From: Patescibacteria group bacterium
Lineage (GTDB): Bacteria; Patescibacteriota; Minisyncoccia; UBA6257; HR35
Assembly: GCA_038065795.1 (NCBI GenBank)
Contig: JBBTQG010000003.1
Coordinates: 1 to 33,993, forward strand
Length of the DNA stretch: 33,993 nt
Direction of reading: 5' to 3'
Below, piece after piece: positions 1,769 to 33,936 of this stretch. Both the position numbers and the translations under genes were made by a program. The notes beneath the pieces are model-generated. The model was given only the letters and a program-made list of their open reading frames with translations, did not search any database and was not told the DNA's origin. Positions within the stretch are counted from its first letter, which is position 1, and every line of letters begins with the position of its first letter.

Positions 1769-1791
1769 TGGCGGAGGAGGTGGGATTCGAA
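1769..1791 (-). repeat. Duplicated 3' end of tRNA-Ser(GCT) (att-like), with CCA
   Basis: 1771-1791 GCGGAGGAGGTGGGATTCGAA is identical to 1951-1971. The minus strand reads TTCGAATCCCACCTCCTCCG-CCA. Confidence 0.85.
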
Positions 1792-1917
1792 GGGGCAGAA
1801 GCCCCATTCATTTTTATTAAGCAATCGTTAATTATTTTTTTGAACATTACCTAGTTTGTTTTTGAAAATTTCTATTTATACAGATAGCATCAAAGTGGCT
1901 TCTCACCCATCATCGCC

Positions 1918-31239: not shown

Positions 31240-32283
31240 ATGAATAACGATAACCATCTATATTTTAACATTGTCAATCAGGAATATATGCCATATCAAC
31301 CGCAATTATACAAGGATTTGGAAAAATACAAAAGTTTCAAAAAATTGTGGGAAAATCACGGCTTAAAACTATATAAAAAAGACCCTCAGGTTGAATTTGA
31401 AAAACTCAAAAAATTAGGAATAAAAATAATAACTATTTTGGACGCAGAATATCCTGAAAGTTTAAAGAATATTCCAAGCCCTCCGTTGGGGTTTTATTTG
31501 CTTGGCGAGATGCCTTTAAATTTTCCATTAGCAATTGTTGGAACAAGAAAAGCTGGACATTATGGATTATCAATTGCGACAAAATTTGCAAAAGCATTGG
31601 CGGGATTAGGAGTTGTGATTGTAAGCGGGTTAGCATATGGAATTGATTCAGCGGCGCATAAGGGAACAGTTGAAATTGGCGGAAAAACTATCGCGGTTTT
31701 GGGAGAGGGAATTGATTTGGTTTTGGATTCGCCAAAAAGAAATTTGGTTGCTCAAATTTTAGAAACAGGAGGAGGAGTAATAAGCGAGTTTCCATTGGGA
31801 GCTGGAGGGTTAAAAGGAAATTTTCCATTAAGAAACAGAATAGTTTCAGGGTTAAGTTTGGGAACTATTGTAATAGAAGCGCCAATCGATTCAGGAGCGT
31901 TAATTACGGCAAGATTGGCGATGGAGCAGGGGAAGGAAGTTTTTGTCGTCCCGGCTGAAATTGTAAATAAAAATTTTGAAGGAAGCCATAGATTAATTCA
32001 GCAAGGAGCGAAACTAATAACAACAATTGACGACATTCTCACGGAATTTGATTTTCATAATACAAAAGCAGATGCAAAAGCATATAATGAATTGTTTAAA
32101 TTAAAATTATCGCCAGCCGAAGAAGAAATTTTTAACGCCTTAAAAATAGAGAGCTTGGATTTAATGGGGCTTCAGGAGGAGCTGGATATGAGCACGGGCG
32201 AGCTCTTATCTCTTTTGACCCATTTAGAAATCAAGGGTATAATTAAAAATATCGGAGGGAAGTTTATATGTACGGGCTCGTAG
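31240..32283 (+). CDS. dprA: DNA-processing protein DprA
   Basis: YPESLKNIPSPP, AIVGTR, VSGLAYGIDSAAH, FPLRNRIVSGLS, SGALITA, LIQQGA. Confidence 0.96.
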   Translation: MNNDNHLYFNIVNQEYMPYQPQLYKDLEKYKSFKKLWENHGLKLYKKDPQVEFEKLKKLGIKIITILDAEYPESLKNIPSPPLGFYLLGEMPLNFPLAIVGTRKAGHYGLSIATKFAKALAGLGVVIVSGLAYGIDSAAHKGTVEIGGKTIAVLGEGIDLVLDSPKRNLVAQILETGGGVISEFPLGAGGLKGNFPLRNRIVSGLSLGTIVIEAPIDSGALITARLAMEQGKEVFVVPAEIVNKNFEGSHRLIQQGAKLITTIDDILTEFDFHNTKADAKAYNELFKLKLSPAEEEIFNALKIESLDLMGLQEELDMSTGELLSLLTHLEIKGIIKNIGGKFICTGS

Positions 32284-32347
32284 TTCAGTTGGTTAGAACG
32301 CTACATTGACATTGTAGAGGTCTCCGGTTCGAGTCCGGACGAGCCCA
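32274..32347 (+). tRNA. tRNA-Val(GAC)
   Basis: GGGCTCG/CGAGCCC + A; CTACA-TTGACAT-TGTAG; TCCGG-TTCGAGT-CCGGA; overlaps the last 10 nt of dprA. Confidence 0.95.
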
Positions 32348-32396
32348 ATAAAAATCACTAGGGGCATTTTTCTTTTATAATTAAGTTGTTGAATTT

Positions 32397-32480
32397 GCCG
32401 AAGTAGCTCAGTTGGTCATCCGTCAAAAGCATATGCATTTTGACGGACCCGCCAAAATGCGCAGCTTTTGGCGGGGAGCA
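32397..32480 (+). pseudogene. 5' part of a disrupted tRNA-Thr-like gene, with two hairpins inserted in the D-loop
   Basis: GCCGAAG-TA-GCTC-AGTTGGT [hairpins 32419-32447 and 32448-32475] GAGC-A. Confidence 0.8.
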
Positions 32481-32489
32481 ATTAAAAAA

Positions 32490-32750
32490 ATGCATTATAC
32501 TTATGTATTATTATTAAGTAATAAAAAATTTTACATAGGTTCGACAAGTAATTTGAAATTAAGATTAAAAGATCATAAAAATGGTCGAGTAAAATCAACA
32601 AGACAATTTTTACCGTTAGAATTAGTATATTTTGAGTGTTGTTTTTCTAAAACAGACGCAATAAAACGGGAGTATCAATTAAAGACTGGATTCGGAAGAG
32701 GGTATCTTAGAAGAAGATTGGAAAATTTTTTAAACAATACGCCGACCTAG
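32490..32750 (+). CDS. Small GIY-YIG nuclease (86 aa)
   Basis: YTYVL...FYIGSTSNLKLRLKDHKNG...LVYFE...AIKREYQLK; start re-called at ATG 32490; the stop codon lies inside tRNA-Thr. Confidence 0.92.
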   Translation: MHYTYVLLLSNKKFYIGSTSNLKLRLKDHKNGRVKSTRQFLPLELVYFECCFSKTDAIKREYQLKTGFGRGYLRRRLENFLNNTPT

Positions 32751-32813
32751 CTCAATTGGCAGAGCAACGGTTTTGTAAACCGTAGGTTCGGGGTTCAAGT
32801 CCCCGGGTCGGCT
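32741..32813 (+). tRNA. tRNA-Thr(TGT)
   Basis: GCCGACC/GGTCGGC + T; ACGGT-TTTGTAA-ACCGT; CGGGG-TTCAAGT-CCCCG. Confidence 0.95.
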
Positions 32814-32870
32814 ATAATATTAATTAAATCGCGAATAAAAAGATATAAAAACTAAAAAGGGCTTTAGCCC

Positions 32871-32890
32871 TTCGAATCCGACCTTCGGCT
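32871..32890 (+). pseudogene. 3' part (T-loop to discriminator) of the disrupted tRNA-Thr-like gene
   Basis: TTCGAAT-CCGAC-CTTCGGC-T. CTTCGGC pairs 7/7 with GCCGAAG at 32397, but not with the intact tRNA. Confidence 0.8.
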
Positions 32891-32908
32891 AAGAAATGTG
32901 ACGGACAA

Positions 32909-32973
32909 TCACCCAGTAAATTAGTGGTTCGTCAGGTCATCCGACCTGACGAACCAGTCGGATGACTGGGCGA
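32909..32973. repeat. Nested GC-rich hairpin
   Basis: TGGTTCGTCAGGTC-ATCC-GACCTGACGAACCA inside TCACCCAGT/ACTGGGCGA. Confidence 0.75.
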
Positions 32974-32991
32974 GCCCGACCTTAAGCTCAA

Positions 32992-33231
32992 ATGAACCCA
33001 GAAGCTTTTTCAAAAGAAAAACCAAAGGAATTTTTTAGCAAAGAAGAAATCCAAGATGCTTTATTGTTTTCAATGGAAAAAGAAGATTTGGTTGTTGAAA
33101 ATAGAATGTTGAGTTTATTAAATAATAGAATGGAGTGGGGTGGTAATAAGGAAATTAAATTCAGCGATTTATCAGAACAAGAAATTGAAACAATCAAAAG
33201 AGTATTAGAATTGAAAAAAGAAGCAGAATAA
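32992..33231 (+). CDS. Small acidic hypothetical protein
   Basis: 79-aa Glu/Lys-rich ORF. Confidence 0.6.
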   Translation: MNPEAFSKEKPKEFFSKEEIQDALLFSMEKEDLVVENRMLSLLNNRMEWGGNKEIKFSDLSEQEIETIKRVLELKKEAE

Positions 33232-33296
33232 GTAAATGGGAAATAATTATTGGCGAGGTGTCGGAGTGTCGGAGTGGGGTACAAAGTGCCATTTTA

Positions 33297-33368
33297 GGAG
33301 GAGTGCGCCGAATTGGTAAGGTAGCAGTTTCTGCGCCCAAGGCGCATCCGTCACGGACGGAGAAAACT
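33297..33368 (+). pseudogene. 5' half of a relic tRNA-Ser(CGA)-like gene, with two hairpins inserted in the anticodon
   Basis: GGAGGAG-TG-CGCCGAATTGGTAAGGTA-GCAGT-TT-C[TGCGCC-CAA-GGCGCA TCCGTC-ACG-GACGGA]GA-AA-ACT. Confidence 0.6.
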
Positions 33369-33605
33369 ATGTATTATATTTATATAATTTATAGCAAAAA
33401 ATTAAATAAAAAATATGCTGGTATTACAAAAAATTTAAAGAAACGAATTTATGAACATAATCATAGTAAAGTGCCATTTACATCAAAGGCAAAAGATTGG
33501 AAGTTAATTTACTATGAAGCATTTCTAAATAAGCAAGATGCATATGCGGAAGAAAAATTTTTGAAAAGTGGAAAGGGCAGAGTTCGTTTAAAATATTTAT
33601 TATAA
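33369..33605 (+). CDS. Small GIY-YIG nuclease (78 aa)
   Basis: YIYIIYS...KYAGITKNLKKRIYEHN...LIYYEAF...AYAEEKFLKSG; start re-called at ATG 33369. Confidence 0.92.
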   Translation: MYYIYIIYSKKLNKKYAGITKNLKKRIYEHNHSKVPFTSKAKDWKLIYYEAFLNKQDAYAEEKFLKSGKGRVRLKYLL

Positions 33606-33659
33606 AATACCTTAACAGATATTTGGCGAGGTGCCGGAGTGGTTTAACGGAGCGGCTCG

Positions 33660-33768
33660 CCCCGTTAGAAAATGGAGGATTGGCAGAATGGTAATGCACT
33701 GGTTTCGAAAACCAGCGGGAGTAATCCCTTGCAGGTTCGAATCCTGCATCCTCCGTTTTCTAACGGGG
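33660..33768. mobile_element. CCCCGTTAGAAAA inverted-repeat element carrying tRNA-Ser(CGA)
   Basis: Perfect 13-bp IR at 33660-33672 / 33756-33768. Confidence 0.85.
33674..33755 (+). tRNA. tRNA-Ser(CGA), intact, nested
   Basis: GGAGGAT/ATCCTCC + G; CTGGT-TTCGAAA-ACCAG; V-arm GGGA/TCCC; GCAGG-TTCGAAT-CCTGC. Confidence 0.95.
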
Positions 33769-33896
33769 TAAAAAAACCGCGTCTTCAAAAAAGACTCGTG
33801 AGTTCGAATCTCACCCTCGCCGAATAAAAAATTAATTTGCTTAAAGGTTAGTTGGCAGATATAAAATAGGGCTTGCCCTTTCAAATCCTCCTCCCG

Positions 33897-33936
33897 CCAC
33901 ACAAAATTCCCATTTTAAAATGGGAATTTTGTGTGG
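33897..33936. repeat. Perfect 40-bp palindrome
   Basis: CCACACAAAATTCCCATTTT|AAAATGGGAATTTTGTGTGG. Confidence 0.92.

Follow-up and report, generated by a model that had tools for sequence, protein, structure and literature searches.

A tiny GIY-YIG nuclease gene fused to a tRNA-Thr gene lies between the ends of a second, broken tRNA-Thr gene in a Patescibacteria genome

Introduction

How does a tRNA gene come to be broken in two around a nuclease gene, and how does the cell remain supplied with that tRNA? The question is raised by positions 32397-32890 of contig JBBTQG010000003.1 (assembly GCA_038065795.1) of a Patescibacteria group bacterium; the whole stretch analysed here, 33,993 nucleotides, is referred to as the window. 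A first-pass annotation, made from the letters alone, had described five parts in this region and proposed that a minimal selfish element had destroyed a resident tRNA gene while bringing a complete substitute for the same amino acid. We find all five parts in the sequence as they had been described. We consider it probable, with the reservations given below, that the region is a small selfish cassette of a GIY-YIG gene and a tRNA, free of any recombinase, which has entered a threonine tRNA gene and compensates for the damage with a tRNA copy.

Results

The element in the window (cassette 1; Table 1) is a tiny nuclease gene fused to a working tRNA-Thr gene and placed between the ends of a second, broken tRNA-Thr gene. 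The ATG start of the 86-aa reading frame is internal to a 112-aa ORF, and its stop codon, TAG, forms positions 8-10 of the intact tRNA-Thr(TGT), hereafter the cargo. Downstream, a short hairpin directly adjoins the 3' fragment, whose acceptor strand is the exact complement of GCCGAAG and pairs 7/7 with positions 32397-32403 of the 5' fragment, hereafter the relic. The promoter-like site upstream of tRNA-Val agrees with the consensus at 11 of 12 hexamer positions; as a pattern match alone, it could possibly drive a tRNA-Val/cassette co-transcript.

Table 1. Features of cassette 1, cassette 2 and their surroundings (positions in the window)
Feature	Position	Strand	Basis
Promoter-like site (TTGACC, 17-base spacer, TATAAT) upstream of tRNA-Val	32215..32243	+	consensus scan
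tRNA-Val(GAC), upstream neighbour outside the element	32274..32347	+	ARAGORN; Rfam tRNA 71.9 bits
Threonine-type tRNA 5' fragment: acceptor strand GCCGAAG, D-stem, D-loop until the break	32397..32418	+	sequence
Hairpin pair at the break (hp1 32419-32447, hp2 32448-32475)	32419..32475	+	covariance model R1, 71.4 bits
GAGCA, broken tRNA resumed past the hairpin pair: D-stem 3' strand and position 26	32476..32480	+	sequence
86-aa single-domain GIY-YIG gene, SLX1/UPF0213-like	32490..32750	+	Pfam PF01541, AlphaFold2, PDB profiles, Foldseek
Intact tRNA-Thr(TGT), cargo	32741..32813	+	ARAGORN; Rfam tRNA 70.3 bits
AT-rich spacer (32814-32858), then short hairpin GGGCTTTAGCCC (32859-32870)	32814..32870	+	sequence
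tRNA 3' fragment TTCGAATCCGACCTTCGGCT: T-loop, T-stem 3' strand, acceptor CTTCGGC, discriminator T	32871..32890	+	sequence
Left copy of the 19-base direct repeat bounding cassette 2	33250..33268	+	filled and empty alleles compared
Cassette 2, insertion present or absent in the population	33269..33622	+	allele comparison; Pfam GIY-YIG E 1.8e-15
Outer class-II serine-type tRNA gene, split in the anticodon loop	33625..33822	+	sequence; acceptor and T-arm pairing
13-bp inverted repeat in the outer Ser split	33660-33672 and 33757-33769		sequence
Intact tRNA-Ser(CGA) enclosed by the 13-bp inverted repeat	33673-33756		ARAGORN, Rfam

Misassembly at the junctions would have undone this description. Both junctions are spanned without differences by contigs from the runs of three studies and by a metagenome contig from an independent source (L147) that shows 99.9% identity over the whole of cassette 1. 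The left junction is bridged by contigs covering 31900-32777, 31900-32786 and 31900-32506, and the right one by contigs covering 32761-33261, 32760-33356, 32758-33118 and 32785-33077. An empty allele of cassette 1 was seen neither in four sequencing runs nor in L147. Two joints considered as candidates for it, one of 32412 to 32758 (sample X3, side of 23) and one of 32416 to 32741 (sample X7, side of 21), were rejected because the side is too short in each; they probably derive from tRNA-Thr genes of other organisms.

The 86-aa protein matches the Pfam GIY-YIG profile with an E-value of 7.7e-16 (58.6 bits, cut-off 22.6). Its AlphaFold2 model (pLDDT 95.2) has the GIY-YIG alpha/beta fold, within which the entire chain is contained, with no separate DNA-binding domain. 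Residues Y5, Y15, G17, R25, E49 and E61 are invariant in 74 aligned nuclease sequences, and we take these Tyr, Gly, Arg and Glu residues to have the catalytic roles usual in GIY-YIG enzymes. A profile search of the PDB retrieved 1zg2 at 2.5e-10, 1ywl at 2.6e-8 and SLX1 at 9e-5; neither I-TevI nor UvrC was among the matches with E up to 0.01. Foldseek matched the model to UPF0213, Slx1, HIGLE, I-TevI and the UvrC N-domain, with E-values of 7e-4 for 1zg2, 5e-3 for Slx1 and 0.24 for I-TevI. By profile and predicted fold, the nuclease appears nearer to the UPF0213/SLX1 branch than to those of I-TevI or UvrC. Searches of NCBIfam and PHROGs gave sub-threshold matches to GIY-YIG motifs and nothing better, and none of 41 pattern matches in viral contigs encodes a relative of the nuclease. 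To our knowledge, its protein family has neither a described enzymatic activity nor a described target site.

Is this arrangement found elsewhere? The first-pass annotation had proposed a survey for small GIY-YIG genes accompanied by tRNA pieces, and its outcome is positive. From 195 nuclease relatives in species-representative genomes we used the best 80 for neighbourhood counts, and a tRNA was counted as a neighbour if it was on the same strand and started between -40 and +200 from the ORF stop. Such a tRNA stands at the ORF end in 69 of these best 80 loci; of the 69, 45 have an ORF that terminates within the tRNA, and 33 an offset of exactly -9, which places the stop codon on tRNA positions 8-10. 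Within the same 69 loci, a 5' fragment matching the cargo tRNA lies within 300 bases upstream in 44 (1 in the reverse-complement control) and a matching 3' fragment within 400 bases downstream in 15 (again 1 in the control). In most relatives the repeated tRNA segment is the 5' part. Fragment and cargo are identical on either side of the insertion point in many loci, so a simple model of immunity by sequence difference cannot explain why the intact cargo is not cut. The cassette is present in a few per cent of the genomes of the order, and the Gly-CCC form is spread across many CPR phyla. Decayed copies also occur, as ORFs with internal stops and as ORF-free fragments in one genome (G028). Loci of Akkermansia and Verrucomicrobia show a mirror-image form, in which 45 bases of the tRNA-Val 3' end are repeated and the break carries a hairpin. 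In a quick tree with weak support, nuclease clades follow the tRNA type (22 label changes versus 33.3 in shuffles, with 0 of 200 shuffles as low). These loci represent a widespread and apparently undescribed family of small, mobile-looking cassettes; the openly searchable literature yielded no account of split tRNA genes that hold a GIY-YIG cassette.

The hairpin pair at the break recurs with the cassettes. Over 44 copies, pairing holds in 97.3% of cells, and 14 of the 21 pairs have changed on both sides; 95 cells are changed on both sides versus 17.3 in shuffles, none of 500 shuffles being as high, and G-U pairs occupy 8 of 924 cells. Tallied from the table of the best 80 of the 195 relatives, the pair lies upstream of the ORF in 59 loci and is found again 3' of the ORF in 17. 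It stands 6-28 bases before the start codon in 32 of 36 upstream copies, the distances in the other four being 65, 67, 92 and 920. Insertion is precise and without target duplication in 31 of 37 mapped copies elsewhere, the broken tRNA resuming after the pair as it does with GAGCA in cassette 1; the left flanks are variable, with no constant target tetranucleotide. Distribution is patchy, a covariance model of the hairpins matching 6 of 151 genomes of the order. In one genome, G128, the pair also precedes unrelated zinc-ribbon ORFs away from tRNAs, and thus it may be a more general module. Because the hairpin pair sits exactly at the break points, is conserved and covaries, we regard it as part of the element and not of the old D-loop, to which the first reading of the locus had assigned it.

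A second cassette lies 400 bp from the first, and here both alleles are seen. Besides its 78-aa GIY-YIG gene (33369-33605), cassette 2 contains two short hairpins and older 5' pieces that resemble tRNA. It is bounded by 19-base direct repeats, the left copy of which includes the first 17 bases of the outer serine-type tRNA gene; together with the right repeat, the cassette provides a new tRNA 5' end. It is missing from L147, which is 99.9% identical on either side, and from the major X3 contig, in which 33261 is joined to 33635 at a depth of 13.8; an X5 contig continues into it. The two copies of the repeat differ by one mismatch, T or C at tRNA position 10, and the empty allele has the base of the left copy. 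This polymorphism shows a recent gain or loss, although it cannot alone tell which.

In the genome as a whole, four of the six small GIY-YIG genes are followed directly by a same-strand tRNA (Thr, outer Ser, Cys and Lys); in the Cys cassette, a 3' fragment of tRNA-Cys carries two hairpins within the anticodon. Searched over the whole genome at E up to 1, the Rfam tRNA model finds 38 complete tRNAs and no fragments, and a scan for a T-loop with a complementary acceptor strand gives 241 matches, a noisy set that is mostly AT-rich chance. The layout of a hairpin with a T-loop fragment is also present at 1772-1805 (minus strand) and at 33869-33899. After the gene for tRNA-Ser(GCT) (1952-2036), 21 bases of its 3' end occur a second time without a mismatch, in the style of an integrase attachment site, and a real intron-bearing tRNA-Asn gene occurs in the genome.

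Which tRNA gene was resident before the cassette? The 20-base 5' piece of the relic matches real genes, exactly or with one mismatch, in 24 of 301 genomes of the order, the genome itself included, and the reversed pattern gives 0 matches. Among the 20 matches listed, 12 are Thr-CGT, 6 Thr-GGT and 2 Met, and two genomes (G098 and G181) have intact tRNA-Thr(CGT) genes with this very 20-mer. The closest intact relatives of the relic are Thr-CGT and Thr-GGT and not TGT; relic and cargo agree in amino acid and may or may not agree in anticodon. The cargo is the sole tRNA-Thr(TGT) that ARAGORN finds in the genome, and therefore the cassette cannot be lost without cost. A relative of the same family, G007, has the cargo's own GCCGACC-type tRNA-Thr(TGT) at 95% identity without a nearby nuclease, whereas the GCCGAAG type is found in 0 of 21 genomes of the family. 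Furthermore, the D-loop style of the relic is unlike that of the genome's three intact Thr tRNAs. Given these three observations, the fragments could have travelled with the element instead of being the remains of a resident gene. The 3' end of the cargo and the downstream 3' fragment differ in sequence. The first-pass annotation would have been contradicted by nuclease-free relatives carrying the GCCGACC type, and in G007 this is partly what we see; the original resident may have been of the relic or of the cargo type. To locate comparable loci we used dprA, found in 58 of 61 genomes (the genome itself included); in 0 of 29 relatives' loci is it followed downstream by tRNA-Val and then tRNA-Thr. 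Among metagenome contigs, a dprA search retrieved the same population (L147) and relatives at no more than 54% identity, with nothing between.

Discussion

We propose that the cassettes are units made of a hairpin pair, a few target bases, a short leader and a nuclease gene that runs into a functional tRNA gene; a spacer and a terminal hairpin are extra to cassette 1. The element would insert inside a tRNA gene of matching amino-acid type while the cell stays supplied with that tRNA. In most relatives, and in cassette 2, the supply would be kept by copying only that stretch of the tRNA which precedes the insertion point, and in cassette 1 by the whole tRNA-Thr(TGT). Thus the earlier idea of a selfish element giving a complete substitute for the same amino acid holds in that the family looks mobile and the cargo is a threonine tRNA, but not in its generality: the copy is mostly partial, and the whole tRNA is a special case. 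The nuclease may break DNA in or beside a tRNA gene, and the break may be repaired by copying of the cassette, with conserved segments of the D-arm, anticodon arm and T-loop serving as homology arms. Repair of this kind would lead to fragments and cargo of matching tRNA type and would allow an occasional switch of tRNA family. The proposal builds on the anatomy, its recurrence, the covariation of the hairpins, the presence and absence of cassette 2 and the fold of the nuclease; from these we infer that the nuclease cuts, what its substrate is (tRNA gene sequence or hairpin structure) and which way the event in cassette 1 went.

A more specific version, which we put forward tentatively and think rather unlikely, is that the nuclease reads branched or hairpin DNA structure instead of sequence, which would amount to structure-guided homing with neither a DNA-binding domain nor a recombinase. 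The target might be the hairpin pair, its units pairing in cis or swapping partners like a four-way junction, or else the cloverleaf-forming strand of a tRNA gene, and the few tRNA bases flanking the hairpins might set the register. Recognition of this kind would account for a hairpin at every break point and for almost purely Watson-Crick pairing.

Are the duplications instead scars of recombinase-driven or Campbell-type integration, in which a circular element with a tRNA segment or the hairpin pair on it recombined with the tRNA gene of the chromosome, the GIY-YIG gene being a passenger or otherwise employed? The 19-base direct repeats around cassette 2, a repeated segment of ~70 bases (hairpin pair and flanks) in full-structure loci such as L145 and L127, the 45-base repeat in Akkermansia and the exact 21-base 3'-end copy after tRNA-Ser(GCT) would all fit, and the genome encodes one tyrosine recombinase and two Y1 transposase homologues. 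However, the window contains neither an integrase nor a Y1 transposase: the window is contig C3, and in the genome PF00589 is matched once, on contig C10, and PF01797 twice, on C10 and on C49, which bears out what the annotators had gathered from the window alone, and a recombinase is absent from every cassette examined. The nuclease is the only protein constantly linked to the structure (69 of the best 80 of 195 loci), its clades follow the tRNA type, and the repeats, 17-45 bases in length, are on the short side for Campbell integration driven by RecA. We consider such an origin improbable.

We are equally disinclined to see a stable, domesticated operon of nuclease and tRNA, in which the hairpins would be a cis-regulatory or RNA-processing element of the leader and the fragments debris of slippage or gene conversion. 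The regular spacing of the hairpin pair before the start codon, its presence before unrelated ORFs in G128 and the reach of the Gly-CCC form through many CPR phyla would suit an operon, and a stop codon within the tRNA could link translation to RNase P processing. Yet an operon of this kind is hard to reconcile with a cassette confined to a few per cent of the order's genomes, polymorphic for presence at 99.9% identity and known also from decayed copies. Where the hairpin pair stands 3' of the ORF as well (17 of the best 80 of 195 loci) it could regulate nothing, and the scarcity of G-U pairs is a better fit to DNA than to RNA.

That the outer tRNA-Thr is a functional gene in pieces, made whole in the transcript by excision of an intron or by the union of two halves, is highly improbable. 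The acceptor strands do pair, the D-arm closes across the hairpins and the genome has its intron-bearing tRNA-Asn, but positions 27-53 (anticodon arm, variable loop and T-stem 5' strand) are wholly absent, and most relatives have a single fragment only. A group I or other tRNA intron was rejected on the same missing positions in the exons, with no match to an intron core, other intron or ribozyme in Rfam at E up to 1. Finally, although metagenome contigs do break within tRNA genes, the junction-bridging contigs of three studies and L147 refute a chimera of two tRNA-Thr loci, to which we assign a negligible chance.

If the selfish cassette is real, it would represent a new way for selfish DNA to inhabit essential genes without being an intron or using an integrase: the element breaks a tRNA gene yet carries the piece, or the whole gene, needed for survival, and so is hard to lose. 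It would offer a possible and testable role for the widespread tiny UPF0213-like GIY-YIG proteins, whose structures are solved and whose function is not known; under the structure-guided version, this would be the first biological role for the bacterial UPF0213/YhbQ family. It would also explain the peculiar tRNA fragments, nested tRNAs and broken contigs seen in CPR genomes, features that can lead tRNA annotation and estimates of completeness astray. Since Akkermansia-type genomes have the mirror-image form, it may be possible to test the idea in a bacterium that can be cultured.

How do the cassettes compare with known systems? The phage T4 enzyme SegB is much longer than 86 aa and has a DNA-binding part. 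It is a free-standing GIY-YIG homing endonuclease of the T4 tRNA gene cluster, whose recognition site contains the conserved T-psi-C stem-loop motif of tRNA genes and which spreads its own gene together with adjoining tRNA genes (PMC2330249). The cassette nuclease is likewise a GIY-YIG enzyme encoded among tRNA genes. Unlike SegB, which is a phage protein without split tRNA fragments, hairpin module or ORF-tRNA fusion, it is chromosomal, has 86 aa and is nearer to UPF0213/SLX1 than to I-TevI.

In fungal mitochondria, free-standing GIY-YIG genes (for example in Allomyces atp6) enter the end of a protein gene, bring a replacement end and leave a pseudogene behind. There, as in the cassettes, an essential gene is interrupted, the displaced part is carried as a copy and the old part is left as a relic. 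The cassettes differ in their bacterial tRNA target, in that the compensating piece is usually the 5' part, and in the hairpin pair that marks the break. With integrase-type islands and prophages they share the tRNA target, the repair of the gene by a tRNA segment they bring along and a duplicate displaced to the far end; in contrast to these, they lack an integrase, restore mostly the 5' side or the whole gene and measure 0.35-0.5 kb. Islands of the integrase type are flanked on both sides by a direct repeat of the tRNA 3' end, which is not found in cassette 1.

IS200/IS605 elements and REPIN/RAYT insert precisely without target duplication, and their conserved imperfect hairpin ends fit single-stranded or extruded DNA. 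The cassettes, too, insert precisely and leave the target unduplicated, in the proportion of mapped copies given above; unlike IS200/IS605, they have no Y1 (HUH) transposase and no constant short target, and both hairpins are on one side of the ORF. Presence or absence at one site, a trait of free-standing homing endonucleases, is seen for cassette 2 and not, in the four runs and L147, for cassette 1. Characterised homing endonucleases such as I-TevI have a separate DNA-binding domain that confers long-site specificity, and this the cassette nuclease lacks.

Non-intron insertion sequences with GIY-YIG ORFs, belonging to neither group I nor group II introns, are known from CPR rRNA genes, and are like the cassettes in placing small GIY-YIG ORFs within structural RNA genes of the same bacterial group (PMC11270868). 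That paper mentions tRNA 0 times and judges the GIY-YIG cases to be outside spread by homing, and its relevant passages describe no compensating gene copy, unlike what we find in the tRNA cassettes (PMC11270868). For the bacterial UPF0213 proteins (YhbQ, COG2827), none of the papers listed by a literature search concerns function. SLX1 is a structure-specific endonuclease that acts with SLX4 on branched DNA, and we know of no report linking UPF0213 or SLX1 to mobility or to tRNA. Bacterial UPF0213 members such as BH0048 and EF2693 are equally minimal, single-domain proteins, and it is UPF0213 and SLX1 that the cassette nuclease most closely resembles, as judged by profile and predicted fold.

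Anatomy of the cassette

The window covers one contig, C3, from end to end. The source genome (581 kb in 56 contigs, with features of the CPR or Patescibacteria) holds, downstream of dprA (Pfam E 2.8e-68) and tRNA-Val(GAC), a small nuclease gene that runs into an intact tRNA gene, the cargo, and is framed by the two ends of a broken one, the relic. In this cassette 1 (32397-32890), the sequence matches exactly the order of parts reported in the first-pass annotation. The stop codon of the ORF forms positions 8-10 of the cargo tRNA, and in the acceptor strands the 3' end of the relic is exactly complementary to its 5' part. Because positions 27-53 are missing from the outer gene, the relic is non-functional. 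ARAGORN lists 39 tRNAs in the whole genome, and the cargo is the only Thr(TGT) among them. The inverted repeats immediately past the 3' fragment gave no Rfam match and resemble the hairpins of another locus (L049), which sit within the T-loop of a tRNA-Tyr fragment.

Features of the window and of related sites on other contigs (C-numbers) of the source genome
Feature	Position	Strand	Evidence
Cassette 1, tRNA 5' part	32397-32418	+	sequence
Two hairpins (hairpin pair)	32419-32475	+	sequence
GAGCA, five bases closing D-stem	32476-32480	+	sequence
Nine-base leader	between GAGCA and ORF	+	sequence
86-aa GIY-YIG ORF	32490-32750	+	Pfam GIY-YIG E 7.7e-16
Intact tRNA-Thr(TGT), cargo	32741-32813	+	ARAGORN, Rfam
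AT-rich spacer, then hairpin GGGCTTTAGCCC	between cargo tRNA and 3' fragment	+	sequence
20-base tRNA 3' end	32871-32890	+	sequence
Dense nested inverted repeats around CATCCGAC	32891-32985
Cassette 2, second GIY-YIG gene	33369-33605	+	Pfam E 1.8e-15
tRNA-Ser(GCT) and downstream repeat	1772-2036	-
Palindrome CCCCGTTAGAAA...TTTCTAACGGGG	33660-33769; C43:8329-8603; C32:5641-5667; C50:23818-23844; C56:16437
Interrupted tRNA-Asn(GTT)	C40:85-399	-
tRNA-Glu(TTC), YhbQ-like GIY-YIG gene, tRNA-Lys(CTT), in that order	C56:30571-31059	-
G+C-rich region	C56:31060-31300	-

Cassette 1 is not a product of misassembly. Its left junction is spanned by Logan contigs from runs of three studies (31900-32777 with 0 differences, 31900-32786 and 31900-32506), its right junction by four more (32761-33261, 32760-33356, 32758-33118 and 32785-33077), and L147, a metagenome contig of independent origin, matches the entire cassette at 99.9% identity.

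Recurrence in relatives

Homologues of the nuclease occur in 229 of 301 genomes of the order, often in many copies. A tRNA lies directly downstream in 6 of the 29 best loci of the order, and these include all five closest homologues (53-59% identity). An alignment of the nuclease subfamily gave 195 relatives from species-representative genomes, the best 80 of which were examined. A same-strand tRNA starts between -40 and +200 from the stop codon in 69 of these 80; the offset is exactly -9, as in the window, in 33 of the 69, and the ORF ends inside the tRNA in 45. The cargo is Gly-CCC in 43 loci, Gln in 7, Gly-TCC in 6, Gly-GCC in 3, His, Val, Ile and Lys in 2 each, and Leu and Ser in 1 each. 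When each cargo tRNA was matched without gaps to the 300 bases upstream of its ORF (score at least 24), a fragment of it was found at 44/69 loci, compared with 1/69 in the reverse-complement control, often as an exact copy from base 1 to the break. In the 400 bases downstream a fragment occurs at 15/69 loci (control 1/69) and starts exactly where the upstream fragment ends. The full structure reads tRNA 1 to x, hairpin pair, a few bases, ORF, intact tRNA, spacer, a few bases, hairpin pair, tRNA x+1 to end. The first-pass annotation had called for a survey of small GIY-YIG genes flanked by split tRNAs together with a tRNA for the same amino acid, and its outcome is positive: fragments and cargo match in kind.

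One locus (L041) has a tRNA-within-tRNA nest for Gly-CCC, similar to the serine nest of the window. Decayed copies are found too, as ORFs with internal stops and, in genome G028, as fragments without an ORF. Contigs of Akkermansia and Verrucomicrobia carry the same nuclease subfamily in mirror image: intact tRNA-Val, 20 bases, ORF, ten tRNA bases, one long hairpin, T-loop to 3' end, and the same 20 bases, making a 45-base repeat of the tRNA 3' end. Their long hairpin is nearly identical to one in a CPR Gln cassette (L142). No relatives of the nuclease were found in viral contigs.

The hairpin pair at the break

The two hairpins had been read as part of the D-loop of the old tRNA. Instead they are a conserved pair belonging to the element, which recurs and covaries across copies. 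Each combines a 6-bp foot rich in G+C with a bulge, an A-T step and a tip that varies. Among 44 distinct copies, 97.3% of cells are paired, versus 85.9% in shuffles and 31-50% with partners slid; both partners have changed in 14 of 21 pairs, and all four Watson-Crick pairs are seen at two positions. Cells changed on both sides number 95, versus 17.3 in shuffles (0 of 500 as high). G-U pairs are nearly absent (8 of 924 cells), a hint that favours a DNA hairpin over an RNA hairpin.

By covariance model, the pair stands upstream of the ORF in 59 and also 3' of it in 17 of the best 80 of 195 loci. In 31 of 37 mapped copies the pair is set precisely into the fragment and the target is not duplicated. 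Gly tRNAs hold the pair either within the anticodon, between its second and third bases (~20 copies), or in the D-arm (~10 copies); Val and Ile tRNAs and the Thr relic of the window hold it at the border of D-loop and D-stem. Past the pair the tRNA continues for 4-7 bases, and the start codon follows 6-28 bases after the pair. The pair is rare on a genome-wide scale and occurs in 6 of 151 genomes of the order. In one genome, G128, three copies (L214, L218, L220) each precede a zinc-ribbon ORF by 12 bases; these ORFs are paralogous (start MREERTCQNC...), the leader is conserved, and no tRNA is close by. The hairpin pair may therefore be a module used by more than one kind of cassette.

The nuclease

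The 86-aa protein is a single GIY-YIG domain (AlphaFold2 pLDDT 95.2) with no separate DNA-binding domain; Y5, Y15, G17, R25, E49 and E61 do not vary among 74 sequences. When solved structures were searched by profile, the UPF0213 proteins BH0048 (E 2.5e-10) and EF2693 came out first, then SLX1, and neither I-TevI nor UvrC at E up to 0.01. Foldseek was consistent with this, I-TevI reaching just E 0.24. SLX1 is a structure-specific nuclease; in the parts of the literature consulted, no role for bacterial UPF0213 proteins was found. On a quick tree of weak support, clades follow tRNA type (Gly, 48 rows; Ile/Val, 97% support), and the enzyme of the window is a lone branch beside these two. Labels of tRNA change 22 times, versus 33.3 when shuffled (0 of 200 as low), a clustering that kinship alone can give.

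A polymorphic second cassette

Approximately 400 bp downstream of cassette 1 lies cassette 2, a 354-base insertion (33269-33622) whose presence or absence is direct evidence of recent gain or loss. It is absent from L147, otherwise 99.9% identical, and from the major contig of sequencing run X3, which joins 33261 to 33635 at depth 13.8; cassette-bearing pieces of X3 have depth 2.3-4.8, and a contig of run X5 (depth 10.9) extends into the cassette. On either side of the insertion stands a 19-base repeat, of which 17 bases are the start of an outer serine-type tRNA gene. One base differs between the two copies, and the empty allele has the base of the left copy; therefore the inserted DNA brings its own copy of the tRNA 5' end, and in the filled allele the downstream tRNA gene is a hybrid. 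Cassette 2 also holds older tRNA-like 5' pieces and hairpins, which shows that fragments can move along with the element. The outer serine-type gene was already split in its anticodon, where a 13-bp inverted repeat encloses an intact tRNA-Ser(CGA).

Other tRNA loci of the genome

GIY-YIG profiles match seven places in the genome, six of them small genes. A same-strand tRNA immediately follows four of the six: Thr(TGT) and the outer serine-type tRNA in the window, Cys(GCA) on C40, and Lys(CTT) on C56, where the stop codon is again tRNA positions 8-10. After the Cys cassette comes a 3' tRNA-Cys fragment with two short hairpins within its anticodon. The C56 gene has a frameshift in an A-run, and a G+C-rich, apparently structured stretch of ~200 bases lies upstream of its tRNA-Glu, with no annotation by any search made.

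The palindrome exists in three states: empty in several places, enclosing tRNA-Ser(CGA) in the window, and flanking another small GIY-YIG gene, on C43, where the right arm encodes the conserved C-terminal ...LTG of the protein. These sites look like a second family of hairpin-framed cassettes. About 165 bases downstream of tRNA-Ser(GCT), a short hairpin, GGGGCTTCTGCCCC, is joined by 21 bases that repeat the gene's own 3' end exactly. This hairpin-plus-T-loop layout is shared with 32859-32890 and 33869-33899, but here no ORF lies between. The repeat may derive from an attachment site or from a cassette that has decayed.

The anticodon loop of tRNA-Asn(GTT) on C40 is interrupted by an insert of ~240 bases, probably a group I intron. 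Neither ARAGORN nor the Rfam tRNA model detects this gene, which explains the apparent lack of tRNA-Asn. ARAGORN finds no tRNA-Ser(TGA), tRNA-Gly(TCC) or tRNA-Leu(CAA) genome-wide (the genome is rated 99.6% complete), and these may sit in unassembled or interrupted loci. In relatives, many nuclease homologues lie at contig ends, which suggests that the cassettes break assemblies.

Origin of the fragments and possible mechanism

The fragments may be what is left of a resident gene, or the element may have brought them along. Of 301 genomes of the order, 24 contain the 20-base 5' piece of the relic with at most one mismatch (control pattern 0), and on sequence grounds it is truly of tRNA origin. 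The tRNAs matched are Thr-CGT (12), Thr-GGT (6) and Met (2). The relic is therefore of threonine type, as had been claimed, but Thr-TGT, the type of the cargo, is not among the matches. Cargo-type tRNA in relatives without the nuclease had been named as evidence against a displaced resident, and family relative G007 carries such a tRNA-Thr(TGT) (95% identity) with no nuclease within 1.5 kb, at the site syntenic to the tRNA-Glu/GIY-YIG/tRNA-Lys site on C56. Relic-type tRNA was not found among 21 family genomes, the D-loop style of the relic is unlike that of the genome's own Thr tRNAs, and no empty allele of cassette 1 was seen in the contigs compared, including L147. Thus, of the first-pass claim that the element destroys a resident tRNA gene and supplies a substitute, the broken gene and the intact tRNA for the same amino acid stand, and the resident status of the relic is putative.

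The anatomy is established, a nuclease gene fused to a tRNA gene with fragments of like tRNAs on its flanks and structured hairpins at the breaks, as are patchy spread, decayed copies and insertion/deletion polymorphism. We infer that the nuclease breaks DNA in or at a tRNA gene and that repair copies the cassette from a donor, the tRNA segments serving as homology. Pairing of the right end with the cargo tRNA would give the common form, a 5' fragment plus intact tRNA; pairing further on would leave a 3' fragment behind. Conservation within tRNAs is highest in the D-loop and T-loop, and crossovers there could move a cassette into a different tRNA-Thr gene, leaving the two ends seen in the window. 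Loss of cassette 1 would be costly for the cell, because no other tRNA-Thr(TGT) is present. Several points speak against this mechanism: the nuclease family is not known to have any activity, the protein has no DNA-binding domain, and in many loci fragment and cargo are identical around the break, where the cargo would be expected to be cut as well. As claimed, the window contains no integrase or Y1 transposase; one integrase and two Y1 transposase genes lie elsewhere in the genome.

Comparison with known systems

Fungal mitochondrial endonuclease genes bring a replacement for the gene part that they displace, and the cassette follows the same logic. In integrase islands this logic is known for the 3' end, whereas here the 5' side or the whole gene is compensated. 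The closest known system is T4 SegB, reported to be a homing endonuclease of the GIY-YIG type; its recognition site takes in the T-psi-C motif of tRNA genes, and it spreads tRNA genes that lie next to its own (PMC2330249). Non-intron insertions with GIY-YIG ORFs are reported from CPR rRNA genes (PMC11270868). A search of openly accessible full-text literature gave no account of GIY-YIG cassettes in split tRNA genes. New here are a target in tRNA genes of cellular genomes, an enzyme of minimal SLX1/UPF0213-like type, an ORF fused to a tRNA gene, a hairpin pair conserved at the break, and compensation on the 5' side or of the whole gene.
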